Both the position numbers and the translations under genes were made by a program. From NCBI GenBank assembly GCA_040400605.1, contig JBBAPZ010000001.1, positions 158,444 through 222,443 on the forward strand: 64,000 bases of DNA, written 5' to 3'. The notes beneath the pieces were generated by a model. The model was not told the DNA's origin and ran no database searches. It saw only the letters and a list, made by a program, of their open reading frames with translations. The DNA is from Candidatus Sericytochromatia bacterium (GTDB taxonomy: Bacteria > Cyanobacteriota > Sericytochromatia > S15B-MN24 > JAQBPE01). Shown one piece after another: positions 13,388-42,534 of the stretch (its first letter is position 1; each line of letters begins with the position of its first letter).

Positions 13388-13915
13388 TCAGGGAGATTGT
13401 GGCACATACGGGCGCCAGTGGGTCTTGGTTCGCACCAGAATGGCGTGGGGCGCAAGAACGGGGTGTGGGGTACGCTCCCAGCGCAGTCCGAATCCGTCAT
13501 CCCGCTCATAGGCGAATTGAATGGCCGCCCCCTTGGCAGCATCTGTCCGGGCGGTTACGATGCCTTGCCAGCCAGCATATAGAGCACCGAGCAGTGCAAG
13601 GCCCATGCTGGCCACGACGGTTCTGTGACGCAACCCATCCCGCAGTGTGGGGGCTTTGGGGGTAAGCCAAATGGCGCCTTGGTTATCAATGAGGGTTAGG
13701 CCTTGCTCGCTCAAGCCCCAGGTGGCGATGGTGCCATCGAGGTCGGCTGCTTCATCGTTGGGCAGAACGATCCAGTGTTCGACGTCGATGATGGCAGGTT
13801 CCAACGGCGTGAGGCGTACTTGGCGCCAATCCCCAGACGCCTCGACACAACTGGTGATGAGCGCCCATCGCCTGCGGGGCCAAACGCCAGTTACAAACCA
13901 GGTGGCTGGGCTCAT
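13388..13915 (-). CDS. hypothetical single-TM protein coupled to the JAB gene
   Basis: AGGAG RBS, ATGA overlap with the upstream stop, hydrophobic stretch VVASMGLALLGALYAGW. Confidence 0.65.
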   Translation of the reverse strand: MSPATWFVTGVWPRRRWALITSCVEASGDWRQVRLTPLEPAIIDVEHWIVLPNDEAADLDGTIATWGLSEQGLTLIDNQGAIWLTPKAPTLRDGLRHRTVVASMGLALLGALYAGWQGIVTARTDAAKGAAIQFAYERDDGFGLRWERTPHPVLAPHAILVRTKTHWRPYVPQSP

Positions 13916-15000
13916 GGTTGTTCTCCTTGGTTAACGAGCTGTAGCAGCCGATCCGCCACGCGTGTTTTGCTCGGTTCGCGCAGGGCAAAACGCCTGTTCC
14001 CCAGTGGGATGACAATGCCTGTTTGGGGGAGGGTGTCAACCAGTTCCGGCACGTTGAGATGCTGCGGCGTCGATTCCTGGTTGCTTTGAACCCAGAGCCA
14101 CAGGGGACCGGTCAGATGACTGGCTTCGATGTCCGCGTAAGTCAATTGGATCATCACGGTGTCATTCCCCACAAGCTGGGCACCCATGGTTCGGCTCAAA
14201 TCAGGTGCTTCAGCGCCTGCAGGTGTCAATGCGTACAACCAGGACGTGCTCGGGGCGGCGAGCACCCACCGGAAAGCGTTTTCATCATTGGGACTCAAGA
14301 GGCGCGCGGTTTGGGTCGCCATCGATTGCTGTCTCAATGAAGCGCCCCACCCAAAGAGGAGCACACCAAGGATGGCGAGCGCGCCTGAGAGACCGAACAC
14401 CCAAGCCAGAGGCTCCGGGCGACTGAAGCGGTGGGGCGGCTTGATTGAATCGTTCAAGCCGGTTGCGGGGTCGAAGCGTGCCTCACGTGCGTCGGGGGCA
14501 TCGGGACCCAGTTGGCCTGGGCGTTCCCAATAATAGATGCCGGCTAACTGGCTGCGGGGATCCACCACCATGGCCAGTTGAAATGGCAAGTTAAAATGCT
14601 GTTGATGGGTTTCTAAATCCGTTTCGGAGAAATAAACCCCGCTTCCTGAGTGAGTATGAACCCATCCCACGCAAGTCAGACCGTTCGGCAATTCTCCGGC
14701 TGGAATCGGAAAGTCGTGTTGATTCCGGGTCAACGCCTCAGCTTTGAAGGTAAACTCGCCCCTGTTCGAACGGGTATTTTCTGCCGGAACAAAATCCTTG
14801 ACGATGATCCGAAACAAACCCTCCTCATTCGTGCGAACCGTGCCAATCAAAAAAGCGCCCAATTCCGCTTCCAAGCTTTTGCGCGCCCAAGACCACAAGC
14901 GCGTAAGCAGTGGACGCGCTATCTGCAAGGTGATGGGACCATCGTTTTGCCATTGCCACAAACGATTCAAGGTGGTCGCTCCCTCCCAGTCACCATTCAC
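13912..15000 (-). CDS. JAB/MPN (JAMM) metalloprotease domain with a TM helix and a C-terminal domain
   Basis: ELGAFLIG plus an intact HxHx7Sx2D (HTH-SGSGVYF-S-ET-D), AMVVDP, then TM LAWVFGLSGALAILGVLLFGWG. Confidence 0.85.
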   Translation of the reverse strand: MNGDWEGATTLNRLWQWQNDGPITLQIARPLLTRLWSWARKSLEAELGAFLIGTVRTNEEGLFRIIVKDFVPAENTRSNRGEFTFKAEALTRNQHDFPIPAGELPNGLTCVGWVHTHSGSGVYFSETDLETHQQHFNLPFQLAMVVDPRSQLAGIYYWERPGQLGPDAPDAREARFDPATGLNDSIKPPHRFSRPEPLAWVFGLSGALAILGVLLFGWGASLRQQSMATQTARLLSPNDENAFRWVLAAPSTSWLYALTPAGAEAPDLSRTMGAQLVGNDTVMIQLTYADIEASHLTGPLWLWVQSNQESTPQHLNVPELVDTLPQTGIVIPLGNRRFALREPSKTRVADRLLQLVNQGEQP

Positions 15001-20050: not shown

Positions 20051-20124
20051 GCCTCGGTAGTTCAGTTGGATAGAACGCGTCCGTCCTAAGGATGATGTCG
20101 GGGGTTCGAGTCCCTCCCGGGGCG
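20051..20124 (+). tRNA. tRNA-Arg (anticodon CCT), CCA not encoded
   Basis: Acceptor stem GCCTCGG/CCGGGGC plus G, D-arm GTTC/GAAC with A20, anticodon arm CGTCC-GTCCTAA-GGATG, T-arm GGGGG-TTCGAGT-CCCTC. Confidence 0.95.
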
Positions 20125-20280
20125 CTGGTACATAACAGGTCGGTCCCAGCAAATGCTGGCAACCGGCCCGTTATGGAAGCCATTGGTCATCATTACTGTC
20201 CACAATTGCCTCACGACTCGGTCAGTGTTGTGTGGCCCGATCTAACGACTGGACTGTTCACATCAACAAGACCGGTTGTG

Positions 20281-22302: not shown

Positions 22303-23418
22303 TCAACCGCCTGGGATCACTTCCCGTTCGTTTGTCTGCGCTGGGTTTTTCTTGAGTTTTTCATAATGACCGCTGGTTGACCAACGGGACAGTTTCAGTC
22401 TGTTGACATACTGTATGAAGCGAACCAGTCCGGCGTCGATCTGCAACATCGTTTGCGTTTGAAACCGTATGTTGTCATAAATCATGCCGTCTTCATCCCT
22501 TAACCACAAAAATCCCAAAACGGTCAGTACCAGGCGTACATACGATGCCATACGGCCGAACAACGATTCCGGCTTGCGTGCAATGTAAATCGGCTGTGTG
22601 CGGGCCTGCCCGTTGGCCAAGGGTGTGTAGGCAAAAATCATGCGGGTGGGTTCAGCCTGCCACCGGCCGAACCAGCGGACATCTTCCAAGGTTCGCAGCA
22701 TACCGATTGAGGCATCAACATAGCGCATGCTGTAAGCGTAACGCGTACCCAGCAAGCCACGGATCGTTCGTTGCACCAAGGTTTTATCGGGAATGGCACC
22801 TTCCATGCGAAACTCGATAATGCGGCCATCCGCTGCTTCCTCGGTTTTCAGGGTCATCTCAATCGGAATATTGTGAACCGTGCGTAAATGTTGCGCATCC
22901 AAGCCGTTGATCATGTTGATGTTATGATGACAGGGTCGGGTGACCGCCCTGCCACGAATCGCATACACCGCTGACCCTTGCAGTTCAGGGTATTCCGGCA
23001 CATCGCCTGCTGCTTGTCGCTCAGGCCAGATCCAGATAAACCCGTAGCGTTCGCGTACATCATAGGCCTGCAACCGTGCACGCTCCGGAATGGCTTCGCC
23101 GCAGGGGATATCCGTGCAGACGCCGTCTCCGTCATAGCGCCAGTGATGAAAAAAACAGCGCAACTGATTGCCATCAACGCGACCAATGCCCAGATCTGTT
23201 CCCATATGGGAACAAAACGCATCCATCGCGCGTAACCGCCCGTCCTCACCACGAAAAACAACCACACGCTGATTGCAGAGCTCGTACGCCTTGACTTTCA
23301 GGGGTGCCACATCCTCTGTGGGGCCAAGCAAATACCACGCGAGTGGGACGACATCCCAGTTATTGAATACGGGGTGCCCCACATGCGGTTGAGTGGCCCC
23401 GTTTTTATCTCGATTCAT
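22303..23418 (-). CDS. Rieske non-heme iron oxygenase
   Basis: CSH...CFFH Rieske ligands, mononuclear iron motif NGLDAQHLRTVH, late Asp (DED). Confidence 0.92.
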   Translation of the reverse strand: MNRDKNGATQPHVGHPVFNNWDVVPLAWYLLGPTEDVAPLKVKAYELCNQRVVVFRGEDGRLRAMDAFCSHMGTDLGIGRVDGNQLRCFFHHWRYDGDGVCTDIPCGEAIPERARLQAYDVRERYGFIWIWPERQAAGDVPEYPELQGSAVYAIRGRAVTRPCHHNINMINGLDAQHLRTVHNIPIEMTLKTEEAADGRIIEFRMEGAIPDKTLVQRTIRGLLGTRYAYSMRYVDASIGMLRTLEDVRWFGRWQAEPTRMIFAYTPLANGQARTQPIYIARKPESLFGRMASYVRLVLTVLGFLWLRDEDGMIYDNIRFQTQTMLQIDAGLVRFIQYVNRLKLSRWSTSGHYEKLKKNPAQTNEREVIPGG

Positions 23419-23622
23419 GATACTTCCGCTCTGCGCGCACGATCACCCTTTGCAATCCAATTTTACCCCTCATCGCAGTGCTTTGACAAAACGCCGTCAG
23501 TAGTGAAAACCAGACATGGCAATGTGAACGACTGTCGCTTTGATGTTGCCGATTCAATTGCGGTTGTTGACCACGCTGACAGCGCATTGGCACGCCGTGG
23601 TGACAGGGTGTTGGGCGGGGTG

Positions 23623-25182
23623 TCATTTTGCGCCATCGTCGGTGCGCAGGTCGTCCAGCAGTGTGTGATCAGCGAGTCGGACAAACAGCAGTGTCGGTTT
23701 GATGTCACCCCATTTCATGCCTTGCCTGGTTTGCCAGGCGGCCAGAATCGATGCTGCCTGGGGGTGAATGAGTGGTTCAATCGGCCCCAATTGGCCCAAC
23801 TCTCTGGCCAGACGATAATGGTGGCTGTTCAGCAATTGGGCGTCAATATGGGCAGCCAGTGCGACGGTGTCTTGGCTGCAATGGTCCATCACGAGGCAGT
23901 AGCGATCGCCCCCGATGCGGCACGGCACAAAACTCGCAACCGATGCGTCGTCAGGCAACAGCTTCGACACCTCGGCACGGATCAATGTTTCGGACAGTTT
24001 TTCGCCCACGAGATCGGATACCAGTCGCCCACGCCCCAGAAAAGCCAAGGTTGGGGTTTGCGCAATCCGTCCCACCACTTGCACGACATCCCCCAACCGA
24101 TACCGGTACAAACCACCCATCTGAGACACAATCACCTGGTACGATTCACCCATTTTCAGCTCGTGCAGTCCGAGCCAATGACCATCGTCCGTTTCAAACT
24201 CAAAATAGACATCATCAAGCAGGGGCACACCGCCTGTGACACCAGTCAAGGGAATGGTGAGAGGGGCTTCGGTGGCCAAGAGCCCTTTGCCCTGAAAGCG
24301 CACGTCCGGCAGGCAGTCTTGCAAGCGTTCCGCCACCGCTTGCGCGTGACCATCCCTCCAGCAGGAAACCAAACGCAGTGAGGGCCAGATGCGGCGCCAG
24401 TCTATCGTCGTTTCTGCGAGGGCTTGGCGAGTGTCTGGGTGCAGTGCCGGCCCATTGGCTGTCAGCAAATCCTGACGATTGGCTGAAATCCAGTCAAACA
24501 GGATCAACAGGTAGGTGGGATTCCAGATCGAAATCGATTCGAGATCTCGCGCTTTAAGCAGCGCAACGCTGACCGCTTGCTTGAATGATTCGGCATCACG
24601 TGCGGCGGCGGCGTCCGGCACCTGAACAAAAAATGGATCCAGCCATGGTTTGAGCCAACGCCCCAAGTAATCCGCATCGGATTCGAAACCTACTTGCGAA
24701 CCTGCGGCGATCGAATGGCTTGCGAGGTGAAAGCGCGGCGAAATGGAAAAATAAAAACGCCCTTGGCCAAGCCCGGGGTCGTGGCGTAGCAAATCACCCA
24801 CCCACAAAACAAACATTCTCCTGAAGGACTGCAACAAGGTGGGAGGGTAGGGAATGAGCTTGGATTGGCCCGCGCTCCCGGACGTTGGTTCGAATTGGCG
24901 TACGATACCTGGCAGCAACACATCAGGTTCGCCGCGGGTGACGCGTTCAACCCATGGTGTCAGGTCATCGAAGGACACAATGGGCAAACGGCGTAAAAAG
25001 TCAGGCGGTGTTTCAATGCCGTAATGCCGTCCATACGACGACTGTCGAGCCAGGCGCGTCAGGCGTTTCAATACGGTTGCCTGTGCATGGGCTGGGTGGC
25101 GCAGGCTGTGCGCAAAGCGTGCCAGAAACGGAGCACTGTAAGCGAGAAACAATCCCCGCAGCAACCAACGGAGGGGCTTCAC
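23623..25182 (-). CDS. GH3-family acyl-acid amido synthetase (adenylating enzyme)
   Basis: PTSGSAGQSKLIP, KGLLATE, YFEF, GGLYRYRLGDVV, FLGR...DLVGEKL. Confidence 0.9.
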   Translation of the reverse strand: MKPLRWLLRGLFLAYSAPFLARFAHSLRHPAHAQATVLKRLTRLARQSSYGRHYGIETPPDFLRRLPIVSFDDLTPWVERVTRGEPDVLLPGIVRQFEPTSGSAGQSKLIPYPPTLLQSFRRMFVLWVGDLLRHDPGLGQGRFYFSISPRFHLASHSIAAGSQVGFESDADYLGRWLKPWLDPFFVQVPDAAAARDAESFKQAVSVALLKARDLESISIWNPTYLLILFDWISANRQDLLTANGPALHPDTRQALAETTIDWRRIWPSLRLVSCWRDGHAQAVAERLQDCLPDVRFQGKGLLATEAPLTIPLTGVTGGVPLLDDVYFEFETDDGHWLGLHELKMGESYQVIVSQMGGLYRYRLGDVVQVVGRIAQTPTLAFLGRGRLVSDLVGEKLSETLIRAEVSKLLPDDASVASFVPCRIGGDRYCLVMDHCSQDTVALAAHIDAQLLNSHHYRLARELGQLGPIEPLIHPQAASILAAWQTRQGMKWGDIKPTLLFVRLADHTLLDDLRTDDGAK

Positions 25183-25841
25183 TGTGCCACGTCAGTAGTG
25201 GGTTCGTGAGGGGCTGACTCCGGGGTTCGTGCCTCGATGACGATGTCGGGCAAGACATCAACGGTGGCGCGTACCAACGCGTTTGCCCTGACGACGACAC
25301 CGGGGCCATAACGGCTTGAGGCGCCAAGAAATGCGCGATCCTCAAAGCACACACGCTTGATGTAAATTTTCATCCCGCCATATTGTCGGCTCGGTGAAAT
25401 GTAGTGGGAAGTCACTTTGACGCCGTAGCCAAAAATGACGTTGTCACCCACTTCCAGCATGCCGCGATCCGCAATTTCAAACCCCGGTGCAAAATACACG
25501 TTGCGTCCGATGCGCGCACCCCAAGCCCGCAACCACAACTGAAAAAGACCCGGTACGAGGCGCAGGACATTTTCGAGAAAAGGGACGGCAATCAACCCTT
25601 GTTGAATCATGTGGGTACCGAACCAAGGGGAGTAGCCTTGGGCGATCGAAAAGGTTCCCTCTTCCAGGCGCCACACCAGTTGATGAAGGTGATAGGCGAG
25701 CAGTGGCAGCAAATAGGCCGCCGTTGGAATCAGGGCCAAGGTTGGCCAGCAGGGGTGAAAGACGAACCATGTAATCGCCCCGAGCAGTGCCCCAAGGTGC
25801 ACAGACGGGAACAGGGTCATCAGACGGGCAAGCAATGTCAT
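25179..25841 (-). CDS. membrane protein with a hexapeptide acyltransferase-like domain (Pls/PosA C-terminal-domain-like unit)
   Basis: Two TM helices, then WLRAWGARIGRNVYF and left-handed beta-helix repeats. ATGA/GTGA overlaps with both neighbours. Confidence 0.75.
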   Translation of the reverse strand: MTLLARLMTLFPSVHLGALLGAITWFVFHPCWPTLALIPTAAYLLPLLAYHLHQLVWRLEEGTFSIAQGYSPWFGTHMIQQGLIAVPFLENVLRLVPGLFQLWLRAWGARIGRNVYFAPGFEIADRGMLEVGDNVIFGYGVKVTSHYISPSRQYGGMKIYIKRVCFEDRAFLGASSRYGPGVVVRANALVRATVDVLPDIVIEARTPESAPHEPTTDVAQ

Positions 25842-26593
25842 TGATAAGGCCACACCAATTGTCTAAAAACTGTACCTGGCACTGGAACGCCAACGGTGTC
25901 CGGTGGGTGTTCGAATCTTCGATAGGTATCGTGCATGCGATCCCACCAACTGAAATTGGCACCGTAATTGTAATTGATTCCGGCACCCGCATGATGCCAC
26001 GCGTGATCCGTTGGGGTAATCAATACGCGTCCCACCCACGCATCAATCCGCGGCGACAGATAACACCCCGAATGCCGCCACAAATCCATTGCCGATGACA
26101 AAGCCGCCGCCCACAACACCGCCGCTTCGCAGCCCGTTACAAACACCCAGGCACCATTCAGCCACAGGTAAACAATCAAAAAACTGGCCCAAACGGGATT
26201 GCGGGAGGTCGCCCACACATCCAACACCCGCGACCCGTGATGAACGCGATGAATGGGCCACAAGGAACGGCGATGCAGCAAGCGGTGGTTCCAGTAATAG
26301 GCATAGTCAACACCCACGAATACGCCCAAAAAAGCCACCCATCCCGGCACAGACCATATTCCTTCCAGATTCGGGCAAAGCCAGCGCAAGCCCTGAACCA
26401 CCAGCCATGCCTGCAACAAAGGAATCGTCACGCCTTGGATCCACAAGCCCACAGCATCCATCGACCATTCCGTTGGTCGACGGCTTCGTAACCAGCCAGC
26501 AACGCCGAGGCGCCGCCAGACCACAATGGTGAAAAGCAGGAAACAGACACCGGTCAATGCGGCGCTACCCAATTGATGAACCACGCGTTCCAT
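25838..26593 (-). CDS. sterol desaturase / fatty acid hydroxylase superfamily membrane diiron enzyme
   Basis: His boxes YYWNHRLLH, HRVHH and HAWHH, plus NYG..FSWWDRM..TY. Confidence 0.92.
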   Translation of the reverse strand: MERVVHQLGSAALTGVCFLLFTIVVWRRLGVAGWLRSRRPTEWSMDAVGLWIQGVTIPLLQAWLVVQGLRWLCPNLEGIWSVPGWVAFLGVFVGVDYAYYWNHRLLHRRSLWPIHRVHHGSRVLDVWATSRNPVWASFLIVYLWLNGAWVFVTGCEAAVLWAAALSSAMDLWRHSGCYLSPRIDAWVGRVLITPTDHAWHHAGAGINYNYGANFSWWDRMHDTYRRFEHPPDTVGVPVPGTVFRQLVWPYQ

Positions 26594-26605
26594 CTTGCAG
26601 CCTTC

Positions 26606-27640
26606 TTAGATGTACATCGTCACGCGGGCCGATTTGGGCGGTAGGCAGGCCGGGTCCCGCCCCTCGTGAATCTCTTTTTGAATGCTTTCCACGTAGACAT
26701 GAATCAAGTCAGAGGGCGTATTGGCGAAATCTTCACCATAGCGACGAATCACGTCCCCTTGCTGTTTCAGTGCAACAATGTCTTGGTCGATGATGGCCTG
26801 TGAGTAGCGCCGGATCGCCCAGGTTATCCAACGCGTCCAGATGCCATAATTGTAGGTGACATCGGTATAGACCAAAGTTTTGCCAGCCTCAAGCGGTATG
26901 GCCTGCGACGTGATGATGAGGTGTCGGGTGGGACCCATGTGATACTCAACGCAACTGACATTGGGCGCAAAAAACTCATCGGTGTGTCCGATGCTGTGCC
27001 CACCGGGGTTCAGAAATCGGCTGAACCAGCCCAAATTCGTGTTTTCGTTAAAATACTCCGCCCGCACGCTCGCACCTTGGCGCGCAATGGACACATCAAT
27101 GGGCTGACGGCGTTCCCGACGAAAAATACCAGGATGGACATAAACCGTGTGAGGAATATCAATAAAATTCTCAATGCAATTGGTGACGGAATTTTCAAAC
27201 AGGTTAATCACCCGCACGGTACGATAACCCGCTTCACCATAGCGCCGCATCCGAAACGGCTCTACCGTCAACGTCGGCGTCGCATTCAAACGAACATAAA
27301 CAAAGCCATCCAATTCGCGGGTCTCATAGACAACCGCGCACCGTTTGGCTACCTGCTTGAAATTGGTGCCTTCGGACGGTACCGCGACCACCGCACCACC
27401 TGTGCCATAGGTCCAGCCATGATACCCGCAGACGAGTTTGCCATCCACAACGCGCCCCTTCGACAGCGGCGCTGCGCGGTGTTTGCACCGGTCTTGCAAC
27501 ACAACCGCCTCCCCGGACTCGTTTCTGAAAACCACGAGATTTTCACCGAGAACCTGCCGCGCCAACACATCCTGTCGGCCCAACGCACGCGACTCGGAAA
27601 CGATGTACCAAAAATCCCTTTCACTTACCCCCACAAACAA
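26606..27640 (-). CDS. Rieske non-heme iron oxygenase (VanA-like architecture)
   Basis: RCKH...CGYHGW, ENFIDIPHTVYVH, IIDQD. Confidence 0.92.
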   Translation of the reverse strand: MFVGVSERDFWYIVSESRALGRQDVLARQVLGENLVVFRNESGEAVVLQDRCKHRAAPLSKGRVVDGKLVCGYHGWTYGTGGAVVAVPSEGTNFKQVAKRCAVVYETRELDGFVYVRLNATPTLTVEPFRMRRYGEAGYRTVRVINLFENSVTNCIENFIDIPHTVYVHPGIFRRERRQPIDVSIARQGASVRAEYFNENTNLGWFSRFLNPGGHSIGHTDEFFAPNVSCVEYHMGPTRHLIITSQAIPLEAGKTLVYTDVTYNYGIWTRWITWAIRRYSQAIIDQDIVALKQQGDVIRRYGEDFANTPSDLIHVYVESIQKEIHEGRDPACLPPKSARVTMYI

Positions 27641-27643
27641 CCC

Positions 27644-27937
27644 TCACTGCGGCAACGGCTTGAGGGTGAGGGGACAACAGACATCAATCTGACAGGCAAG
27701 GCGCGCGCGGGGATTGTCCGTCAACACATCCAGCAGTTCCTGCTCATCGCCACCCGGGGGTTCCAACTGTTCGAGGCCCGCCTGCACTTCAACAAGGCAT
27801 GTGCCACAGATACCTGTGCGACAACCAAATAAAATTGGTGAACGCGTGGCATCAAGTTCCACAGAGAGCGATCGCCCCGCCGATACGGTTGACGGCTCGT
27901 ACCCCGGTTCCTCATAGTGAATCTGAAATTGCGTCAC
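27644..27937 (-). CDS. 2Fe-2S ferredoxin
   Basis: FGCRTGICGTC...RLACQ. GTGA overlap with the upstream gene. Confidence 0.92.
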   Translation of the reverse strand: MTQFQIHYEEPGYEPSTVSAGRSLSVELDATRSPILFGCRTGICGTCLVEVQAGLEQLEPPGGDEQELLDVLTDNPRARLACQIDVCCPLTLKPLPQ

Positions 27938-29169
27938 GTCACCGCCTCCCGCATCGTGGGACGAACCCCAGGAATTCGATCCGGCTTCACATTTCGCGCA
28001 AAGTCAGCCAACGCTCGCCGATTTTGCGTCAGATAACCTTGCATCGTTGTCTGACGCATCAGGCTCAAATTCTTGTTCTCCGCATTGACGTAACCCAAGG
28101 GATCCAAATAGCGCTGATACGAATCGATCGCCGTCTGCATGGTTGCAAACGAAGCCGTGTTGCCATTGTTTTCTTCCGCGAAGCAAAGCCGCATCATCTC
28201 CAACGCTTCACCATGCGCCATCCCGAAAATACCACTGCGCAACACTTTGTAGATTGCCTGAAATGTTGCTGGCTCGTGCCAGAACAAACCATTGACCACA
28301 GCGGAAAAATGGCGGTGATCCTTTTGGCACCCCATAATCGCACGGTTGCCCACCATCGCCTCAAACGCCGACGGCTTGGGCAGGGCGTCAATCACCTCGC
28401 AGCCAACGATACAGGAACTGTTAAAATGAAAACTCTCATCCATAAAATGATAATGGCTGATGGCAGAGGGTACTGCGGCTGTTTCTCGTTCCGGCAGACG
28501 CATGTAATACTGAGACAATTTGTGTTGCACCATCTTGCCATTCAAGGTGCGTAAGCCACGCACCGTAAAATACTGCGACGCGATGAACGCATTGCTTGAC
28601 GTGAGCAGGTTGTACGCCTGCAACTGAAAGGTGCGCCACATATCCTTCAATTTGTTGGTGTCCGGAAAAAGCATGGTCTGCGCGTAGGGGCTGCGCATGG
28701 ACCATGAAAACACCCGCTCACCGAAAAGCGCTTCCTCGACTTGATCGCTCACAGTTTTGAACGCATTGATATGCGCGCGTTCCTGGGCCGATTCGAGGTC
28801 CAACATATCACAGACCCCGCGAAAATCTTCCAAGGCATAAAGTCCGGCTGCGCAGGTCTGATTCAAGAAAATTGTGGCGACTTCCGCTGAGATGATCTGC
28901 GAATAATACGCCACCCAATACAACTGATTCAAACGCAAACGCTGCGTCTCATCCGCCTGATCCCACAATGGCGTACCATGTAGCAGCGAATGCTCCGGCG
29001 AGTTCCAATACTGATGCTGGCAGTCCTCATATCGAAACTTTTTCGCCGCTTGGTCAAGCAATGCCGTATGATCCTGCTCCTTGTTGCGTGAATGATTCAG
29101 ATGAATCTTCTTGCAGAGTTTTTCATCCTGAACGATTGCCGAAACCGGACGGGGCAGCTTCTCACTCAT
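27934..29169 (-). CDS. AurF/CylC-like dimetal-carboxylate enzyme, candidate halogenase
   Basis: SAEVAT, QERAH and HFMDESFH ligand motifs. N-terminal FRYEDC..YW..PE.SLL.GTPLW...Q.L.LN.LYW recalls CylC-family proteins (recognition by eye). ATGA overlap at 29166-29169. Confidence 0.72.
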   Translation of the reverse strand: MSEKLPRPVSAIVQDEKLCKKIHLNHSRNKEQDHTALLDQAAKKFRYEDCQHQYWNSPEHSLLHGTPLWDQADETQRLRLNQLYWVAYYSQIISAEVATIFLNQTCAAGLYALEDFRGVCDMLDLESAQERAHINAFKTVSDQVEEALFGERVFSWSMRSPYAQTMLFPDTNKLKDMWRTFQLQAYNLLTSSNAFIASQYFTVRGLRTLNGKMVQHKLSQYYMRLPERETAAVPSAISHYHFMDESFHFNSSCIVGCEVIDALPKPSAFEAMVGNRAIMGCQKDHRHFSAVVNGLFWHEPATFQAIYKVLRSGIFGMAHGEALEMMRLCFAEENNGNTASFATMQTAIDSYQRYLDPLGYVNAENKNLSLMRQTTMQGYLTQNRRALADFARNVKPDRIPGVRPTMREAVT

Positions 29170-30065
29170 ACACACCTCGTTGCTTCCAAAGGGTCAAACG
29201 CACGCAATTCTTCCAGAGCCACAATCACATCGTGTGCGCCCTCCTGCGCCATCAACTGGCGCAAGGTATTCAAACGCGAGGCGCTGTGTGCCATTGTATC
29301 CAATTCCTCCAGGGTCTTCACCCGTTCGGCACGCGACAAGCCACCCACTGCCTCATCAATGGCCGACAGTACCGCTTGCGGCCCTACCTGCACCATGCCC
29401 AAAAATTGCCTGAGCGTATCAATCAACACCTGACGCTCACTGCGACCCAACTTGGCCACCAACGACTTTTGCACATTGAGTACGACCCCACCACCATGAT
29501 GACGCGCTTCGTCCTTTAAAATGGCCTGTAACACCTGCCGAAACCACGGTTCTTGGCAGCCCCGCATCATGTCGCTGTAGCGCTGCAAGCCCCAGCCTTC
29601 CAGCACCACTTGAATCAAAAAGACGAGTGTTGCCGGGTTGTGAGCGGCGATCGATTCATTCAGGATACGGTGAAACGCATTGGGCTTGACTTGGGCGATC
29701 GCCTGACCCAACGCCTCTTTCACCCAGGCATAATGGGTGGCCTCATCAGCCGCGAACAAGGCATATAGCATGCGTTCCTCATCGGAATCAGCCAGCATGC
29801 ACATGCGAGACGCATACACCATGCCGGCATCCTCAATGTAAAAAGCTTCCTCAAGCAAACCCCGATTACACCGCGAAACAATTTGCTGCTGCACATCACG
29901 CCGTGCCGAACGGTAGACGCTTGTGCGTTCCAGATTAAAAAATTGCCCATCCCAAAAATTATCAGGCACACCCTTAAAAGACTCGAAAGTACTCCCCGCC
30001 TTGTGCAAAGCGTGACGCAAAATCGACTGGGTGCGATCGCACACGGGCATGTCATCAACGACCAT
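29166..30065 (-). CDS. ferritin-like diiron carboxylate protein
   Basis: FYIE, ADEATH, VLEGWG and KDEARH give a full E / ExxH / E / ExxH set. Start at ATG 30065 after AGGGAG. Confidence 0.85.
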   Translation of the reverse strand: MVVDDMPVCDRTQSILRHALHKAGSTFESFKGVPDNFWDGQFFNLERTSVYRSARRDVQQQIVSRCNRGLLEEAFYIEDAGMVYASRMCMLADSDEERMLYALFAADEATHYAWVKEALGQAIAQVKPNAFHRILNESIAAHNPATLVFLIQVVLEGWGLQRYSDMMRGCQEPWFRQVLQAILKDEARHHGGGVVLNVQKSLVAKLGRSERQVLIDTLRQFLGMVQVGPQAVLSAIDEAVGGLSRAERVKTLEELDTMAHSASRLNTLRQLMAQEGAHDVIVALEELRAFDPLEATRCV

Positions 30066-30906
30066 CGGAAACACTCCCTGTATCCAACGCACCAACCAGG
30101 GGTTGTATTCCGGACTCCCGTTCAATGGCTACACTGACGTCACGCACAACCGGTCGCGCCTTGAGGCGATAAAAAGGCGCCAGGGTCACCTTTTTGACGC
30201 GCTTCCACCCATAGGCAAACGGCAAACCGAAAGTCATTTCCGCCAAACATACCAACTCGGCACCGTCTCGCCAGTACGGGTTTTTTTGCTCAAAAAAACG
30301 AATGCGCGGAAAACGCACCATTTCATCTGGCGTCGCCTCGGCGACGCCACTTTTCAGTTGTCCTTTCGACACCGCATAACGAATTAAACCGGATTCCGGA
30401 TCATAATCCGCGCCAAACAAGCCCTGCGCAAATCGATGAATCAAAACTTGCACGGTCAGCGGCGTCGCACATTCATGCCGTGGGTAATGCGTTGGGAAAT
30501 TGTTGGCCATCAGCAAATAGGTCTTGTATCCTTTGCTGATTAAAAACCAGTACAACGGCTCAAACGGTCGCTTCAGCTTCGCAAACCACAAATACCGCAA
30601 AAATGCCACACCCAAAACCTTTTGCCCCCAAAATGCCGCTTCAACCACGGTGTCACCACTAAAAATGGCCCGCACCGTTCGACCCGATTCGTCTGTCAGC
30701 ACCATCTGCCGCAAGGTCGAGAAACCCCTCAACACGTTTGACCCGCGTTCCAGCAACAAAATAACCGCATCTTTATTGGCAAGATCGATTTCAAACTGTT
30801 CCTGTGACACCGCCGTGTAGTACGTTTCGAAAATCGCATACATGCGCTGACGCACCTTGTGGTCCAGTTCACGGACGGCAACCGTTCGCGAGATCAATGC
30901 TGACAC
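30055..30906 (-). CDS. GNAT-fold-like conserved hypothetical protein
   Basis: GNAT-like order of elements: VILL...LRGFST, IFSGDTVV...FWG, YWFLISKGYKTY. Overlaps both neighbours. Confidence 0.7.
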   Translation of the reverse strand: MSALISRTVAVRELDHKVRQRMYAIFETYYTAVSQEQFEIDLANKDAVILLLERGSNVLRGFSTLRQMVLTDESGRTVRAIFSGDTVVEAAFWGQKVLGVAFLRYLWFAKLKRPFEPLYWFLISKGYKTYLLMANNFPTHYPRHECATPLTVQVLIHRFAQGLFGADYDPESGLIRYAVSKGQLKSGVAEATPDEMVRFPRIRFFEQKNPYWRDGAELVCLAEMTFGLPFAYGWKRVKKVTLAPFYRLKARPVVRDVSVAIERESGIQPLVGALDTGSVSDGR

Positions 30907-32015
30907 GCGTCCCCCTTGCGTTTTGCCGCCAAGACCGCAGAATCGTTTTGGTCACCATCCCAACTGCCCCACGGTACCGCCCGTTGCTGCTCGACATGCC
31001 GAATAAACTCAACGATTGGGCGATCCGCGCCGATCGGTGTCTGAAACTTCCAATGAATCGTCTGGAAAACCTGCGTATCGCCCTTGGCAAAATAATTGCC
31101 CACAATCTCCGTCACTTTTAAGATGACCCGGTTGAGCAACCACCCCATCACCCCTTTGCGCTTGGCCGTCACCAAAATGGTCTGGCCCTCCGATGTCCCT
31201 TTAGCCGTCGGACGCAAGGCAAAAATGATGTGAAAATGCAAAAAATCAGGCCCAACCGTCACCGAACCGGTAGAACCATTCCAATAAACCATCCGATACG
31301 TCAAAGGCCCCGCATACCAACGCGCCAGCAAACGGTTGAAGGGGTTGTTTGTTGGAACGGGACGATCATTGTCAAACATTTGACAGTTTTGCGCCGGGGA
31401 CGATACCGCAAAATGCAAACCATCCGCCAACGATGATGCCAATGGGTGTACCGAGTGAAAGTGCTGCTCATCAATCGCATTTACCATCACAATGTTTGGA
31501 TGGCACCCCTTCTCAAACCGATTGCCAAGCAACCAATCAATTTCCTGACCGGCCAATTCCGGGATGTAAGGCACTGGGCGCAAAGCAACCGCTCCATTCC
31601 AGATCCAGACCATGCCATACTGCTCCGCCACGGGCCACACCTTGACACCCACGCGCGCAGGATGCGATTGGCACGGAATGTCGACCACCTGCCCTTGCGC
31701 ACCCATTTTCCAGTGGTGAAAGAAACAGCGAATCCCCTCACCATCCACCCGCCCTTCAGCCAAATGGGCACCCATGTGGGGGCAATACGCATCCATCGCG
31801 CGGGCGACGCCTTGCTCATCGCGGAATACGACAATGTTCCGACCAAGAAAATTCAGGGGTTGGATCTGCCCGCGCCGCAATTCGCCGGCCGCACACGCCC
31901 AATACCAACCCTCCACAACCGAGTCGAAACTGCCAAAGACTGTGCCAGCACAATCGCGAGCAGGCTCAGTACAAGGTGTGATCGATAAGTCCGGGTTCAC
32001 CCATGTCTCTTGCAT
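30894..32015 (-). CDS. Rieske non-heme iron oxygenase (first gene of the operon)
   Basis: YCPH...CFFH, NAIDEQHFHSVH, KGD. GGGAG RBS. Confidence 0.92.
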   Translation of the reverse strand: MQETWVNPDLSITPCTEPARDCAGTVFGSFDSVVEGWYWACAAGELRRGQIQPLNFLGRNIVVFRDEQGVARAMDAYCPHMGAHLAEGRVDGEGIRCFFHHWKMGAQGQVVDIPCQSHPARVGVKVWPVAEQYGMVWIWNGAVALRPVPYIPELAGQEIDWLLGNRFEKGCHPNIVMVNAIDEQHFHSVHPLASSLADGLHFAVSSPAQNCQMFDNDRPVPTNNPFNRLLARWYAGPLTYRMVYWNGSTGSVTVGPDFLHFHIIFALRPTAKGTSEGQTILVTAKRKGVMGWLLNRVILKVTEIVGNYFAKGDTQVFQTIHWKFQTPIGADRPIVEFIRHVEQQRAVPWGSWDGDQNDSAVLAAKRKGDACQH

Positions 32016-32427: not shown

Positions 32428-33288
32428 GTGTCGCAGCGTATGGATGGGAAGACGGTTGTAATCACGGGCGCATCAAGTGGACTCGGATTGGCATCCGTCC
32501 GCGCTTTGGCAGCCCAGGGCGCGCGGATCATCGCTGCGGTTCGGGATGTCGACAAACTGCAGGCCATTCTTGGCCCAACGGACCAGTTAACGCAGATTGC
32601 CCTGTGCGATTTGGCGGATATGGCCAGTATCCAGCGTTTTGCCGAGCGCTTGTTGGCATCGGAGAAGACGATTGATGTATTAATCAACAACGCAGGTGTC
32701 ATGAACTTTCGCCACATCCAAACGCGCGATGGCTTCGAATCCAATTTTGGCGTCAATCATTTGGGTCATTTTTTACTGACGGCCCGACTTTTTCCACTTT
32801 TGGCAGCGGCGCCCGCAGCACGGGTCGTCACGGTCAGCAGTATCGCCCACCGTCGTGGAACCCTGGACTTTGCCAATGCCGATCCGGCCAAGGACTTTGG
32901 TGCGCCCCACTCCTATGCCAACAGCAAATTGGCAAACCTGGTTTTCAGTCTCGAGTTGTCCCGCCGCCTGAAGCAGACCCATCCCCACATGGCGGCTGTC
33001 GCAGCCCATCCCGGTTGGACCCACACCCCGTTGTTTCGTGATATGAGCGTGACTGCCTGGTTGAGCCGCTTTTTGGCCATGGATGCGGAATCGGGCGCTG
33101 CACCGCAAATCGCGGCAGCCTTGGACACATCCATCCCCAATGGTGCTTACTGGGGCCCCAACGGTTTTCGCGAAATTTGGGGCAAACCGGGCCCGGCGGC
33201 ACCTTCTATGCAGGCGCTTGACGAGGGGCTCGCTCAAATCCTTTGGCAACGCTCGGAAACCTGGACCCAAACGCCGTTTAAGCTGTGA
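32428..33288 (+). CDS. SDR oxidoreductase (retinol dehydrogenase-like)
   Basis: TGASSGLG, INNAG, NHLGHF, YANSK, HPG. Confidence 0.93.
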   Translation: MSQRMDGKTVVITGASSGLGLASVRALAAQGARIIAAVRDVDKLQAILGPTDQLTQIALCDLADMASIQRFAERLLASEKTIDVLINNAGVMNFRHIQTRDGFESNFGVNHLGHFLLTARLFPLLAAAPAARVVTVSSIAHRRGTLDFANADPAKDFGAPHSYANSKLANLVFSLELSRRLKQTHPHMAAVAAHPGWTHTPLFRDMSVTAWLSRFLAMDAESGAAPQIAAALDTSIPNGAYWGPNGFREIWGKPGPAAPSMQALDEGLAQILWQRSETWTQTPFKL

Positions 33289-33305: not shown

Positions 33306-35591
33306 TCAAGACGGGAACTTTTGGTCGGTGCGATCGCCTGGCCACCAGTTCCAACGACCCGCGAGCAGCAACAAAGCAGGAGCCAGTATCGCGCGAATCA
33401 AAGTCGCATCAAGCAAAATGGCCACGGCCAACCCGAGGCCGAACAATTGCGTGAATACAATTCGCGCAAAGGCAAACGAACCGAACACCAAGATCATCAT
33501 CAAGGCCGCCGCCGCAATGATGCTGCCAGACTGGCCCATTCCTGCCAAAATCGCCTGCTCTTCATTCATCTGACTTCGCGCTTCCCGTACCCGACTGAGT
33601 AAAAAGATTTCGTAATCCATACTCAGGCCAAACGTCACACAAAACACCAATACCGGAATGAACAAAGGCCAGGCGTTAATCGGTTCGGCAAGGCCAATCC
33701 AACTGGACAACCAACCATCCTGAAAAACCAGCACGAGCGCCCCAAGCGATGCTGAAACAGCCAACAGATTCAGTAAAATTGCTTTAAACGGGATCAGTAT
33801 TGAACGGAACAGGATGCCAAGCAAGACAAACGACCCCACAAACACGGCGGTGAGGCACCAAGGCGCCCGCTGTTCCAATGCGAGTCTATAATCGAGGTTG
33901 AACGCGGCATTGCCGCTGATCGCAACCGCCAACTCTCCCGCATACCGCCGATACTCCGCAACGATGCCCTCCGCCTCTTTCAGCGTCACGGCATCTTGTG
34001 GCCACACCAAAAACAAGGCTTTTCGGTGGTCCCGACTCAGGGTATAGGTCGCGATCGCGGGATAACGCTGCAAGGCGCGCTCAGCATTCGCGTACAACAG
34101 GCGATAAGCCATCGCCTTTGTGCCAGGCCGCAAGTCCACCGGCGACAAAACAGCCTTGATGCGCGGATCCTCATGCAAGCGCCGCGACAGTTCCAACATC
34201 TGCTTAACCCCTGCTGCACCCAATACCCCACCGGTGTCACGGGTGCTTACAACCATCGGAATCGGTTGACTGACACTCGCACCATTCAGACGCTTCAACA
34301 CTGATGCAGCCTTGACCGCCTCCAGTTCTGCCGGGAAATGACGGGTTTCCGGCACCCCAAACACCGCTCTGGAGGCATTCCAGGCGATCGCCAACAACAG
34401 TGCGAGTACACCGAGGCTCAACCAAAACCGATGGCGTTGAACAAAAGCGCCCCAACGCAACCATTTCTGAGCCCCCCACCCCGAATCGGTCAGGCGTGAC
34501 CAACCTGCCGGCCAATCGAGCCACCGGTCACCCAGCAGCAACAGAGCAGGCAACAAGGTGCATACAGCGGCAAGCGCGGCGCCCACGACCAGAACGCCCG
34601 CAACCCCCACCGAGTAAGCATCCGTGGTTCCTAAAATCAGCAAAGCTGCCATGCAAATCACAACCAGGCAGCCCGACGCCAGCACCGTGCGAACAGCCGT
34701 TTTAAACACCATCCTGACAGCGTCTGCTGCCGATGCTCCGCCACGCCGCACCTCACGAAATCGTGAAACAACCAGCAGCGAGTAATCAATTCCCAACGCC
34801 AAACCGATCATCGACACGGTGGTCTGGGCAAATCCATTCATGCCAACCCAGTCTGTTCCCACAACCAACAAGGCCATGGCAAGCAAACACGCAGCCGCGC
34901 CCAACAAAACCGGCATGGCGGCAGCCAGTGGCGTACCAAATACCAGCATCAGCAAGACCAAGGCAGGAAGCAGTACACGCCGTTCCGCCGTGGCACTGTC
35001 ACCCATCGTTCCCCCAACAATGTCGGCTTCCAAAACCCCCGCGCCCGTCACATAAACCTGTGCCGCGGAATCGAAAGCCTTCAGCGTGGGTAATTCCTGT
35101 TGGATTATCTCGCGAACAGGCGGCAGGAGACTGCGTTCGCGATCCCGCAAGGTCCGACCGATAAACCACACTTCGGCGTGGGCATCACGTAAGCGCGGCA
35201 ACGACAAACCAAGCGGAGGCTTGGAATCGACAACACCCAAGACGTCCGGCACCGACGCAAGTCGCTGTCTCAGGCGCGCACGCCAGGCATCCAGTGCCGG
35301 ATCGCCTGGCGTGCGCGCTGGCGTCTCAATCACGACAACCAGCGGCGCGATGTAGGGATTGACGAAATTGTCCGTCAACTCATTCATCACATCGACCGCT
35401 TGACTGCCCGGAATATCCAGGTGACTGCGCGCCAGTCGATCACCCAAATGCAAACTGAGCGGCAGCGACATCAGCATCACGACCAACCAACAACCAACAA
35501 TCGCCCACGGACGTTTGATAATCAACTCAACGATGGCGCCACTCACGCGTAAATACCACCTTGCAAACAAACTTGTGTCACGATGCGCCAA
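33306..35591 (-). CDS. MMPL family (RND superfamily) transporter
   Basis: GLALGIDYSLLVVSRFRE, FGLSMDYEIFLLSRVRE, LLDATLIR, GRWNWWP. About 12 TM helices. Confidence 0.93.
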   Translation of the reverse strand: MAHRDTSLFARWYLRVSGAIVELIIKRPWAIVGCWLVVMLMSLPLSLHLGDRLARSHLDIPGSQAVDVMNELTDNFVNPYIAPLVVVIETPARTPGDPALDAWRARLRQRLASVPDVLGVVDSKPPLGLSLPRLRDAHAEVWFIGRTLRDRERSLLPPVREIIQQELPTLKAFDSAAQVYVTGAGVLEADIVGGTMGDSATAERRVLLPALVLLMLVFGTPLAAAMPVLLGAAACLLAMALLVVGTDWVGMNGFAQTTVSMIGLALGIDYSLLVVSRFREVRRGGASAADAVRMVFKTAVRTVLASGCLVVICMAALLILGTTDAYSVGVAGVLVVGAALAAVCTLLPALLLLGDRWLDWPAGWSRLTDSGWGAQKWLRWGAFVQRHRFWLSLGVLALLLAIAWNASRAVFGVPETRHFPAELEAVKAASVLKRLNGASVSQPIPMVVSTRDTGGVLGAAGVKQMLELSRRLHEDPRIKAVLSPVDLRPGTKAMAYRLLYANAERALQRYPAIATYTLSRDHRKALFLVWPQDAVTLKEAEGIVAEYRRYAGELAVAISGNAAFNLDYRLALEQRAPWCLTAVFVGSFVLLGILFRSILIPFKAILLNLLAVSASLGALVLVFQDGWLSSWIGLAEPINAWPLFIPVLVFCVTFGLSMDYEIFLLSRVREARSQMNEEQAILAGMGQSGSIIAAAALMMILVFGSFAFARIVFTQLFGLGLAVAILLDATLIRAILAPALLLLAGRWNWWPGDRTDQKFPS

Positions 35592-37957: not shown

Positions 37958-38860
37958 CTAGGAGCCGATCCACTCAGACAATGTGAGCCTGCCGGATTGC
38001 AGATCCGTCGAGCCGAGTTTGATGGAGCCGCCCCGAGCTGTAACCCGGAGGGCCTTGTACCAATAGCGCCCATCGTTTCGCTGACAGGCCACATACCAAA
38101 CGCCAGGCGGGAGGTCGAAGTTGGCCACGCCATTCTCGTCGGTGACACTTTGAACAAAGCCTACATGAGGCTGCCCACCCTGACGCACCACCGCCTGTTG
38201 CAATGCCTCGTTGCGTCTGCCAAGCCATGCAGCCAAACGCACCTGATACTCAACATCGCCACTGCTGCCGAGCCCCTGGTTTTCATTGTAACCATCAATG
38301 ATGCGATTCAGCGCCTCCGTGACGTGCGCACACCAGATCTGACGCCCATTCATTTTGGAGAAAATGGCGCCAATCCCCAAATCGTCAGGCCGATCACCAT
38401 ATTTTTTGAACACCTCGTCAAACGCGGGCATCAACGTGGCCAATACCTCAGGCTCAGCGGCGTGAGCAATCCGAAAGCCCTCTCGAAATCGTTCCAGCTC
38501 AAACGAATGCACCAGACTGAAACTGCGCCAACTGGCAATCCGCGGCACAGGTGTCAGATTGGTCTGTTTGCTGTCAGGTTCCGGCCTCGATGCACTCAAA
38601 CTTGCCATCACCAGCGGAAAGAGGCGTTTGACATCATAAGAAAACGCCACAACATCCTCGCCCTCATCCAATGCCCCTTGGGCATCGCCGAAGCTGATGG
38701 CAACCGGCGCGGCGCACGCAGTCACGGACCAAAACAGGCACCCCAGCACAACCGCGCCCGGGACGACCAGTTTGACGCCAAGCCGCTTGACACATCGGAT
38801 GACAGACATGCTGCGCAGTGTAACCCGGGATTTCATCTGCTGACTGTGACCAATGGCCAT
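37958..38860 (-). CDS. hypothetical exported protein with a C-terminal beta-sandwich (carboxypeptidase regulatory-like) segment
   Basis: Signal-like VVPGAVVLGCLFWSVTACA, and VTDENGVANFDLPPGVWYV. Confidence 0.7.
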   Translation of the reverse strand: MAIGHSQQMKSRVTLRSMSVIRCVKRLGVKLVVPGAVVLGCLFWSVTACAAPVAISFGDAQGALDEGEDVVAFSYDVKRLFPLVMASLSASRPEPDSKQTNLTPVPRIASWRSFSLVHSFELERFREGFRIAHAAEPEVLATLMPAFDEVFKKYGDRPDDLGIGAIFSKMNGRQIWCAHVTEALNRIIDGYNENQGLGSSGDVEYQVRLAAWLGRRNEALQQAVVRQGGQPHVGFVQSVTDENGVANFDLPPGVWYVACQRNDGRYWYKALRVTARGGSIKLGSTDLQSGRLTLSEWIGS

Positions 38861-39166: not shown

Positions 39167-39631
39167 ATGGAACACGGTGAATCGTGGGTACAATGCGTGG
39201 GACTGATTGTCACGCTGTTGCGGTTGCACGCGCTTGAACACAAGGGGGAGCCACTTTTGCCTCAGCCTTTTCCCAATTCGCCGTTTGATCATTTGGCGCA
39301 GTTTTGGATGCAACGGGCGCGCGAGGTAGGCGTGACAGAGCAGCAAGTGTTACAGCTGTTGGGTTTTAAGGGGGGAGTCGGGCCGCTTGAAACCTTGTTG
39401 TCCGGTCGACCCGCCAGCGAAACCTTGCCTGAAATTGCCCAAGGGATTGTTGAAGGCACCGGAGAGGTAATCAAAGCAACGCGAGGGCAGGTTGAAGCGG
39501 CGTTGCCGGTCGTCATTCCAGAAGAGCATAAAACGATTGTCAAGAAGTTACACATGCTGGATGGTGAGGGATTGAGGCAATTGGATGTCTACCTCAATTT
39601 TTTGATCGCGCAGGGTATGGTGAAGCGCTGA
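39167..39631 (+). CDS. hypothetical protein, possible degenerate Xre-like regulator
   Basis: AREVGVTEQQVLQLL (HTH-like) and a C-terminal LDGEGLRQLDVYLNFL helix pair. 7 bp from the upstream gene. Confidence 0.6.
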   Translation: MEHGESWVQCVGLIVTLLRLHALEHKGEPLLPQPFPNSPFDHLAQFWMQRAREVGVTEQQVLQLLGFKGGVGPLETLLSGRPASETLPEIAQGIVEGTGEVIKATRGQVEAALPVVIPEEHKTIVKKLHMLDGEGLRQLDVYLNFLIAQGMVKR

Positions 39632-40454: not shown

Positions 40455-41027
40455 TCAGCACGGTTCATCGCGCAAACCCAGTGCGCCAAACACCTTTGTC
40501 CACCGCACACAACGCTCGGTTTGGCACGTGCTTGGTTTGGTGCATGTACAGGCGTGAATCAAAGGTGCCTCAAGTGCCAGCGCCAGTCTGGCAATGGCTT
40601 GATCACTCGCGCGCCAGAAGGGGCGCTCCAGTGCCTGAAAACCCCACGCGGCCAACAACTGATTGGTGGCGGTAATTCGCGCGACGTGAGCAGGTTGGGT
40701 CAGGTCACGCCGCACAGGTAAACACAAGCCGTACGCACCATGCTCGGCTGCAGCCGTGATCAAAGCCAGCAAAGCGGGCAAAACCAAGGGATCGTCCTGG
40801 GCTGCAATGGTGTGGTGCTGACAACCAAAATGGGCCAGCAGTGCGTCCACGGCCTGTGCCCTTGCCGGATGCCAAGACACCCGAGACGGCACAACAGCCA
40901 ACCACTCCCGTTCAAGCCTGGTGAACCACGTGGCCAAAACACATGCTTCGAGGCTTCCATCCAACCACAGGGCGATCCGCCCACCACCCTCAGGCGCCTT
41001 GGCTGAAGAGGCGTCCATTCGCATCAA
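40455..41027 (-). CDS. QueC-like protein with a degenerate PP-loop
   Basis: IALWLDGSLEA sits where SGGLDS is expected. C-terminal RPF...IARLA..LEAPL...C.C....C....C.RW..VF..LG..D follows the QueC layout. Confidence 0.6.
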   Translation of the reverse strand: MMRMDASSAKAPEGGGRIALWLDGSLEACVLATWFTRLEREWLAVVPSRVSWHPARAQAVDALLAHFGCQHHTIAAQDDPLVLPALLALITAAAEHGAYGLCLPVRRDLTQPAHVARITATNQLLAAWGFQALERPFWRASDQAIARLALALEAPLIHACTCTKPSTCQTERCVRWTKVFGALGLRDEPC

Positions 41028-42337: not shown

Positions 42338-42534
42338 GATCACACTCCTGTCACTGCTTCATCATTGCTTAAACCCTACAGTATGCCAGAGCCCACACAC
42401 CCTAACAAGGCCAGTTCCTTTGTAGGGCCTGTGTCTGGCCCGCACTACCATGGCATCCACCAGTGTACAGGACCGGTAGGGCCGTAACCCTTCAAACACG
42501 GCTTGCATCGGTGCGGGGGCTGCCAGGGAGCGCA

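Follow-up and report, generated by a model that had tools for sequence, protein, structure and literature searches.

Organization of the locus

The window, by which we mean the whole 64,000-nucleotide stretch of Sericytochromatia DNA analyzed here, contains a cassette of ten coupled or closely spaced genes, all on the minus strand, extending from position 22303 to 32015. Read in the direction of transcription, it opens with Rieske oxygenase A (30894..32015), which has Rieske and mononuclear-iron motifs and KshA as its best solved relative, and continues with a putative acyltransferase of GNAT fold (30055..30906; Z 13.4, rmsd 2.6, 151 aligned positions) that has no Pfam match, a second predicted ferritin-like diiron protein (29166..30125, with a likely start at 30065), and the predicted CylC-like ferritin-fold diiron protein that is the main subject of this work (27934..29175). 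The stop codon of the CylC-like gene is overlapped by a 2Fe-2S ferredoxin gene (27644..27937), whose product is likely the electron donor, and beyond it lie Rieske oxygenase B (26606..27640), of VanA/PaO type with SxtDIOX/SxtT as best solved relatives; a membrane diiron enzyme of the fatty-acid hydroxylase/sterol-desaturase family (25838..26593) with a weak, below-cut-off match to OlsE; a putative hexapeptide-repeat acyltransferase with a hydrophobic N-terminus (25179..25853); a GH3-family acyl-adenylate/amide ligase (23623..25182) with TSGS, LATE and YRLGD motifs and a weak match to OlsH, also below cut-off; and Rieske oxygenase C (22303..23418).

Two accessory genes flank the upstream end. 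A short-chain dehydrogenase (SDR) gene (32428..33288) is divergent from the operon on the plus strand and is not of the SDR type found within many related cassettes; that type is present in 19 of 84 loci, and a 36% match to it lies on another contig (C92) of this genome. A predicted MMPL lipid exporter follows on the minus strand (33306..35591), and MMPL genes also flank the related loci L001, L005, L006 and L007. Scans for promoters and terminators stayed at chance level (11 versus 8.2 ± 2.5, and 18 versus 19.6 ± 4.7), and there is no sign of recent transfer in the base composition, the GC and GC3 of the cassette matching those of its neighbors. Elsewhere in the window, a tRNA-Arg(CCT) gene (20051-20125, plus strand) lies about 2.2 kb past the end of the cassette with no GC island, a JAB-domain protein of prokaryotic type, which has a hydrophobic stretch and is extended at its C-terminus, is encoded at 13912-15000 (minus strand), and four further genes have no Pfam match: 42463-44019 (plus, 518 aa), 37958-38860 (minus, 300 aa), 39167-39631 (plus, 154 aa) and 40455-41027 (minus, 190 aa).

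The second ferritin-like protein has a full set of four Glu and two His as invariant residues (E78, E108-x-x-H111, E156 and E186-x-x-H189), and in 36 of 36 rows the last ligand is immediately followed by one more invariant His (E186-x-x-H189-H190). Its gene immediately precedes the CylC-like gene in 69 of 77 loci, and lies 7-10 kb away from it in six. A complex prediction for the two proteins with four Fe scored 0.00 in a setting where the controls did not fold, and carries no weight in either direction.

Environmental sequence data also contain parts of the locus. Two metatranscriptome runs from one study yield short contigs over parts of the CylC-like gene and Rieske A, which may represent DNA carry-over, and the runs containing at least half of the gene's words are labelled as freshwater, lake, subsurface or unspecified metagenomes. 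In one DNA run, X3, there is a gap across codon 217.

The CylC-like protein and its family

The CylC-like open reading frame encodes 413 amino acids from a GTG codon, and its likely start is an ATG at 29169, two codons inside the GTG, that overlaps the stop of the upstream gene as ATGA and gives a protein of 411 residues. Residues are numbered throughout on the 413-residue GTG form. An earlier note on this DNA had ended the reading frame at the ATG and left the residue at its missing-glutamate site unnamed; that residue is Gln217.

The ligand motifs that the note described are all present: Glu98 in SAEVAT (28882..28884), which is the first predicted iron ligand and corresponds to NocO E94; Q131-E132-x-x-H135 (28771..28785), a QExxH motif with Gln where AurF has D135; and H243-x-x-D246-E247-x-x-H250 (28426..28449), an HxxDExxH motif, all on the minus strand. 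The six predicted ligands E98, E132, H135, H243, E247 and H250 are invariant in 97 of 97 homologue rows, as are both of the other second-sphere residues. Eight of the nine residues that are essential one by one in NocO, including the Gln that replaces AurF D135, are kept in all 97.

An AlphaFold2 model (mean pLDDT 81.7) is a ferritin-like four-helix bundle resembling AurF (Z 17.4, rmsd 3.8, 284 aligned, 11% identity), and the next solved folds by VIA realignment are CmlI (Z 16.6) and then ribonucleotide reductase R2 (Z 14.8 and below). Foldseek returned no match to the model at E ≤ 0.001, a PDB sequence search with the CylC-like protein alone gave one irrelevant match, and phmmer found none to AurF or CmlI. 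The protein scores 22.6 bits against the Pfam AurF model (PF11583), below the gathering cut-off of 29.6. In sequence it is nearest to the CylC type: 1129 proteins match it at E ≤ 0.001, and in a library of 50% clusters its relatives include full-length CylC-type representatives at about 30-35% identity with E-values down to 1e-65. The earlier view that it is not an N-oxygenase of the AurF/CmlI family thus agrees with both the nearest sequences and the Pfam score, and the motifs, full-length homology and AurF-like ferritin fold are those of the CylC family.

Within that family, a quick tree of 71 rows, of which 32 including the query carry Gln at position 217, groups the Gln rows on a single branch (SH-aLRT 100), next to the Glu rows. 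The branch leading to the Gln clade is long (1.46), the tree carries a warning of long-branch joining for the far rows and P0136, and sll0266 is not among its rows. The cyanobacterial homologues from Rieske clusters, 55-60% identical to the CylC-like protein, fall in the Gln branch, and identity to the 29 Glu-type rows is 25-34%. From these comparisons the protein almost certainly belongs to a Gln/Rieske clade of the CylC family. Five distant relatives at 19-21% identity (P0237, P0239, P0247, P0258 and P0259) stand between AurF and CylC and have an EExxH-type second motif and an acid at the Gln217 column.

Gln217 and the acid-free helix

The earlier note had pointed to a segment with neither Glu nor Asp where a fourth glutamate would be expected. 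Residues 203-220 indeed lack both, and the acid-free run extends to 50 residues, 179-228, spanning the entire predicted helix 196-225. Taken alone this is a weak signal, with a chance probability of about 0.13 at 10.7% Asp plus Glu, and 49 of the 396 18-residue windows of the protein contain no acid. The acid-free helix-3 segment is nonetheless a conserved trait at the sequence level, since none of the 97 homologue rows (94 distinct) has Asp or Glu in 203-220.

Gln217 (28525..28527, minus strand) stands at the position of AurF E196, CylC E283 and NocO E252. In a 24-row alignment the query and the representative of its clade have Gln in this column, all 17 CylC-type rows have Glu, and five far relatives have an acid (Glu in four, Asp in one). 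Gln is likely the derived state because these far outgroup relatives carry an acid there. The 24-row profile aligns the column to a CmlI Glu situated 27 residues ahead of the last motif's first His; the match has an E-value of 1.5e-4 over the whole sequence, and the stretch around the column itself is weakly matched. The published pairs CylC E283/H310, BrtJ E219/H246, ColD E278/H305 and NocO E252/H279 are likewise all 27 apart (PMC12101540), whereas here Gln217 stands 26 residues before the His. The CylC and NocO sequences are absent from the comparison set, and NocO was placed through its published primers; those for E252A put E252 three residues past a conserved Lys, as Gln217 is past K214.

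The earlier note held that CylC-type halogenases are marked by the loss of one glutamate; this is only half right, and at the level of sequence it fails. According to the accessible text of Wang et al. 2025 (PMC12101540), CylC, NocO, BrtJ and ColD retain the residue in their sequences, and models predict that it has shifted from the first coordination sphere, freeing a site for chloride. The same source reports that NocO E252A holds its iron but loses chlorination, and it mentions 'a small subset' of homologues with Gln without, in the text available, linking them to a cluster type. In the CylC-like protein the fourth carboxylate, equivalent to AurF E196, is missing, and the second-sphere Glu of the proven dimetal-carboxylate halogenases (E283/E252) is replaced by Gln217. 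Judged by its residues, the missing Glu sets this protein apart from the product-linked halogenases, rather than joining it to them, because those enzymes keep the Glu.

The Glu/Gln state and the gene neighborhood

A total of 126 CylC-like reading frames from 124 loci were scored for Glu or Gln and for their neighbors. The loci comprise 80 fetched by clade patterns, four from relatives, and 40 chosen among the matches to a Glu-type query, which was run against 201 cyanobacterial genomes (50 matched) and five further genomes. The 97 Gln rows represent 94 distinct sequences, three rows being the same contigs fetched twice. The 80 clade loci were selected by similarity and include many from Nostoc; kin are not independent; and the neighborhoods scored extended up to 10 kb per side around most Gln rows but some 5 kb around Glu rows.

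Two or more cassette genes accompany 95 of the 97 Gln rows, and an ACP or fatty acyl-AMP ligase (FAAL) was detected beside none of the 97. No Glu row among the 29 has two cassette genes, and 23 of the 29 have an ACP or FAAL nearby; the six others occur in glycosyltransferase, sulfotransferase/P450, trans-AT or dialkylresorcinol-like settings. The ACP profile derives from Glu-type neighbors, and all four of its matches that were checked against Pfam were confirmed. All 13 Gln rows that came from the Glu-query sample are accompanied by at least three cassette gene types. A second residue of helix 3 co-varies with Gln217: position 210 (28546..28548, minus strand) is Thr in 97 of 97 Gln rows and Asn in 29 of 29 Glu rows. 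The Gln trait counts as a single evolutionary event rather than as a statistical correlation. Two Glu-type homologues, at L166:4282-11012 and L167:81-7393, have no detected ACP and lie by a fatty-acid hydroxylase and sulfotransferase, with PhyH or P450/KAS III; in both, helix 3 begins RGLR as in the Gln clade.

Conservation and spread of the cassette

Across 47 related loci of at least 20 kb, the ferritin-like gene and a Rieske gene are present in 47, the ferredoxin in 46, the GNAT-like gene in 45, the hydroxylase in 41, the hexapeptide gene in 37 and GH3 in 35; the 12 long loci where GH3 was unseen include some in which it was perhaps cut by the locus edge. Relatives of the CylC-like protein are encoded in 399 stretches of the genome collection, and named carriers include cyanobacteria, Sericytochromatia, Myxococcota, Bdellovibrionales, gamma- and betaproteobacteria, Elusimicrobia and a planctomycete. 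Of 40 related genomes, 11 have a close homologue and one a distant one. The GNAT-like family is no private marker of the cassette, being found in eight related genomes that yielded no CylC-like gene. Searches with profiles of the GNAT-like and ferritin-like families, and one with a single sequence, recovered no informative solved relative.

Individual lineages have genes added to the cassette, including a SAM methyltransferase in five loci (L012, L047, L053, L073 and L074; for example L053:15370-16245), an amidohydrolase with an Mpo1-like match (L037:5928-8045), a GMC oxidoreductase with MMPL (L005:16155-20464) and an asparagine-synthase-like amidotransferase (L011:5004-6944), which hints that these additions reflect variants of the product. 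By inspection of sequence, small toxin-antitoxin-like genes separate the ferredoxin from Rieske B in many Nostoc copies (L024-L079) and also surround the cassette.

Carrier proteins and acyl activation

The absence of an ACP and a FAAL from the window, claimed in the earlier note, was borne out: neither an ACP profile nor a FAAL query matched any of the window's 919 six-frame segments, and the eight PF00550 matches in the genome all lie off the locus contig, C1. The cognate ACP and FAAL that are a trait of the clusters of proven halogenases are thus not found here. The note's suggestion of a new substrate presentation is plausible, and has already been published for clusters of this type (PMC8406957).

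The GH3 ligase of this operon went unremarked in the note. It scores 41.8 bits against the OlsH model, for which the cut-off is 620. OlsH, the one characterized bacterial GH3 in the literature covered, makes N-acyl-ornithine from free fatty acid and ATP with neither ACP nor CoA, as described in the accessible text of PMC12493201, and by analogy GH3 could give a carrier-free acyl activation, such that the cassette may produce an oxidised N-acyl amino lipid with no carrier involved. The weakness of the OlsH match and the 12 long loci in which GH3 was unseen tell against this, and housekeeping ACPs or the FAAL/ACP cluster on contig C8 could act in trans. That cluster (L099:3843-17631; G000:C8:87842-101630), a second lipid cluster unlinked to the cassette, encodes another GH3 ligase, an ICMT/PEMT-type methyltransferase, a FAAL, a hexapeptide acyltransferase, three ACP-like genes, a ketosynthase pair, an AMP ligase, two KAS III, a carboxyltransferase and an SDR.

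Proposed function and alternatives

CylC and NocO, the two assayed family members, are chlorinases that need ferredoxin-type reduction. We tentatively favor a role for the CylC-like protein as a diiron chlorinase that attacks an unactivated C-H bond of a free or amide-linked lipid, and regard the whole of this mechanism, chlorination included, as somewhat short of an even call. Two irons would bind, with one coordination site left open for chloride, and the adjacent ferredoxin would reduce the 3-His/3-Glu diiron center as inferred from NocO; activation of O2, abstraction of hydrogen from an alkyl chain and rebound of chlorine would follow as proposed for that enzyme, with Gln217 keeping the hydrogen-bond role proposed for NocO E252. 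The weakest step is the one in which GH3 would take the place of FAAL and ACP, activating a free fatty acid by adenylation and coupling it to an amino acid in the manner of the planctomycete enzyme OlsH. From there the Rieske, hydroxylase, second diiron and acyltransferase enzymes would assemble an oxidised and possibly chlorinated N-acyl amino lipid, and the MMPL protein would export it. Chlorine rebound is favored on three grounds: eight of the nine essential residues do not vary, there is no fourth carboxylate, and Gln can still form the hydrogen bond. The inactivity of NocO E252A, the long branch of the Gln clade and the second fixed difference in helix 3, T210 rather than Asn, are counted against it. 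A further point against is that we know of no chlorinated lipid from Synechocystis PCC 6803, which carries sll0266.

Hydroxylation or desaturation of a lipid through the same diiron C-H activation, with the Glu to Gln and Asn to Thr changes marking a switch of outcome, comes close behind, given that the residue altered here is indispensable in NocO and that the clade has no known product; we consider it a serious possibility at roughly one chance in three. The clade differs from four product-linked halogenases (PMC12101540) at a residue needed for chlorination, the change is derived, with acids in the far outgroups, and five other O2-using enzymes share the cassette; moreover, the accessible text of PMC8406957 links the clade to no product, halogenated or otherwise. 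Diiron hydroxylases, however, typically have four carboxylates where this protein has three, the change from Glu to Gln is conservative and leaves a residue that still accepts a hydrogen bond, and no hydroxylating CylC relative appears in the papers covered here.

It is also conceivable, though unlikely, that the protein uses ordinary acyl-ACP or acyl-CoA from central fatty-acid metabolism, in which case its substrate presentation would not be new, whatever the reaction. Such a source is proposed by Eusebio et al. (PMC8406957), and it fits the PP-binding matches in the genome and the FAAL/ACP/KS cluster on contig C8, as well as the six Glu-type genes that likewise have no detected ACP or FAAL within about 5 kb. 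The contrast in neighborhoods, with ACP or FAAL beside no Gln row and most Glu rows, argues against it, as does the presence in the cassette of its own adenylating enzyme.

That the protein is an N-oxygenase of AurF/CmlI type, whose substrate would be an amine from the cassette's own pathway, is improbable. AurF and CmlI are the closest solved folds and share the three His ligands, and many relatives are named 'P-aminobenzoate N-oxygenase AurF' in databases; yet the PDB searches returned no CylC structure, so that fold rank cannot separate CylC from AurF, and structural identity to AurF and CmlI is just 10-11%. The set of three His and four carboxylates is not found, Asp and Glu being absent from 179-228, Gln replaces AurF D135, and neither the sub-threshold Pfam score nor phmmer ties the protein to that family.

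Still less credible is a weakly active or structural role as partner of the neighboring 4-Glu/2-His protein, comparable to the second subunit of multicomponent monooxygenases: the frequent adjacency of the two genes and the complete ligand set of the neighbor would suit it, but the genes are well separated in six loci, and the invariance of the six ligands and both other second-sphere residues is unlike that of a metal-free subunit. Least credible of all is a cassette whose target is not a fatty acid but a sterol or hopanoid made by the cell itself, since the kinship of Rieske A to KshA and SdmA and the nearby sterol-desaturase-family, SDR and MMPL genes are outweighed by steroid-family matches that are all far below cut-off and by the squalene/oxidosqualene cyclase domain, not found in this genome (94.6% complete) or in four of the five other cassette-bearing genomes searched.

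Relationship to known systems and significance

Earlier work has already described this branch, its type of cassette and the lack of a carrier. Eusebio et al. 2021 (PMC8406957) described 36 'Rieske-containing' clusters with no known product as the commonest type of CylC cluster (36 of 95), each with one CylC homologue, two to four Rieske proteins, a sterol desaturase and acyltransferases, and with no carrier or activating domain. In their account the Rieske and PriA types form a clade of their own that includes deltaproteobacterial and Melainabacteria members; they suggest an untethered substrate, and caution that some homologues may not halogenate. The present locus has a single CylC homologue, three Rieske proteins, a sterol-desaturase-family gene, acyltransferases and no carrier, and in our quick tree it shares one branch with cyanobacterial Rieske-cluster homologues, as a member of the Rieske/PriA clade would; it resembles the published 'Rieske-containing' and 'PriA-containing' clusters (sll0266 type) in gene types, in its ferritin-like protein, in forming its own clade and in having members outside the cyanobacteria (PMC8406957). 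It differs in its host, a member of the Sericytochromatia that is likely non-photosynthetic, and in the MMPL exporter that adjoins the operon. Gln and a GH3 ligase go without mention in the accessible text on those clusters (PMC8406957), and the accessible part of a 2026 preprint (10.64898/2026.09.06.749771) mentions neither Rieske nor GH3. Wang et al. 2025 screened sll0266 for expression, and according to the text available only NocO was characterized (PMC12101540); our literature search, with most subscription papers outside its scope, found no product or assay for the Gln/Rieske branch.

Compared with CylC, NocO, BrtJ and ColD, the protein shares QExxH, HxxDExxH, the first Glu, a predicted 3-His/3-Glu site and the ferritin-like fold; CylC and NocO, as described in PMC12101540, act on acyl-ACP, whereas the cassette here has no carrier. 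With AurF and CmlI it shares the fold and three His ligands, but those enzymes have four carboxylate ligands, an Asp before the second Glu and different substrates. The cassette GH3 is like OlsH (PMC12493201, as far as accessible) in fold and nucleotide-binding motifs, although its score lies far below that model's cut-off.

This analysis contributes three points: Gln and the Rieske cassette correspond one to one, a Thr co-varies with that Gln, and GH3 is a candidate for carrier-free activation. Whether CylC-type enzymes can act without a carrier, and whether all of them halogenate, are questions that the field itself lists as open (PMC8406957). The fullest reading of the locus, which we offer as doubtful, is that the Gln clade comprises carrier-free C-H chlorinases on GH3-made N-acyl amino acids, leading to a chlorinated or cryptically chlorinated amino lipid through a ten-gene pathway common to cyanobacteria, Sericytochromatia, myxobacteria, Bdellovibrionota, Elusimicrobiota, planctomycetes and proteobacteria. 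The locus is a compact, uninterrupted and coupled copy of the cassette with an exporter, and is suited to heterologous expression. A carrier-free aliphatic chlorinase, if this reading is true, would be a useful biocatalyst, and the choice of Glu or Gln at a single residue would then predict carrier dependence across the family.
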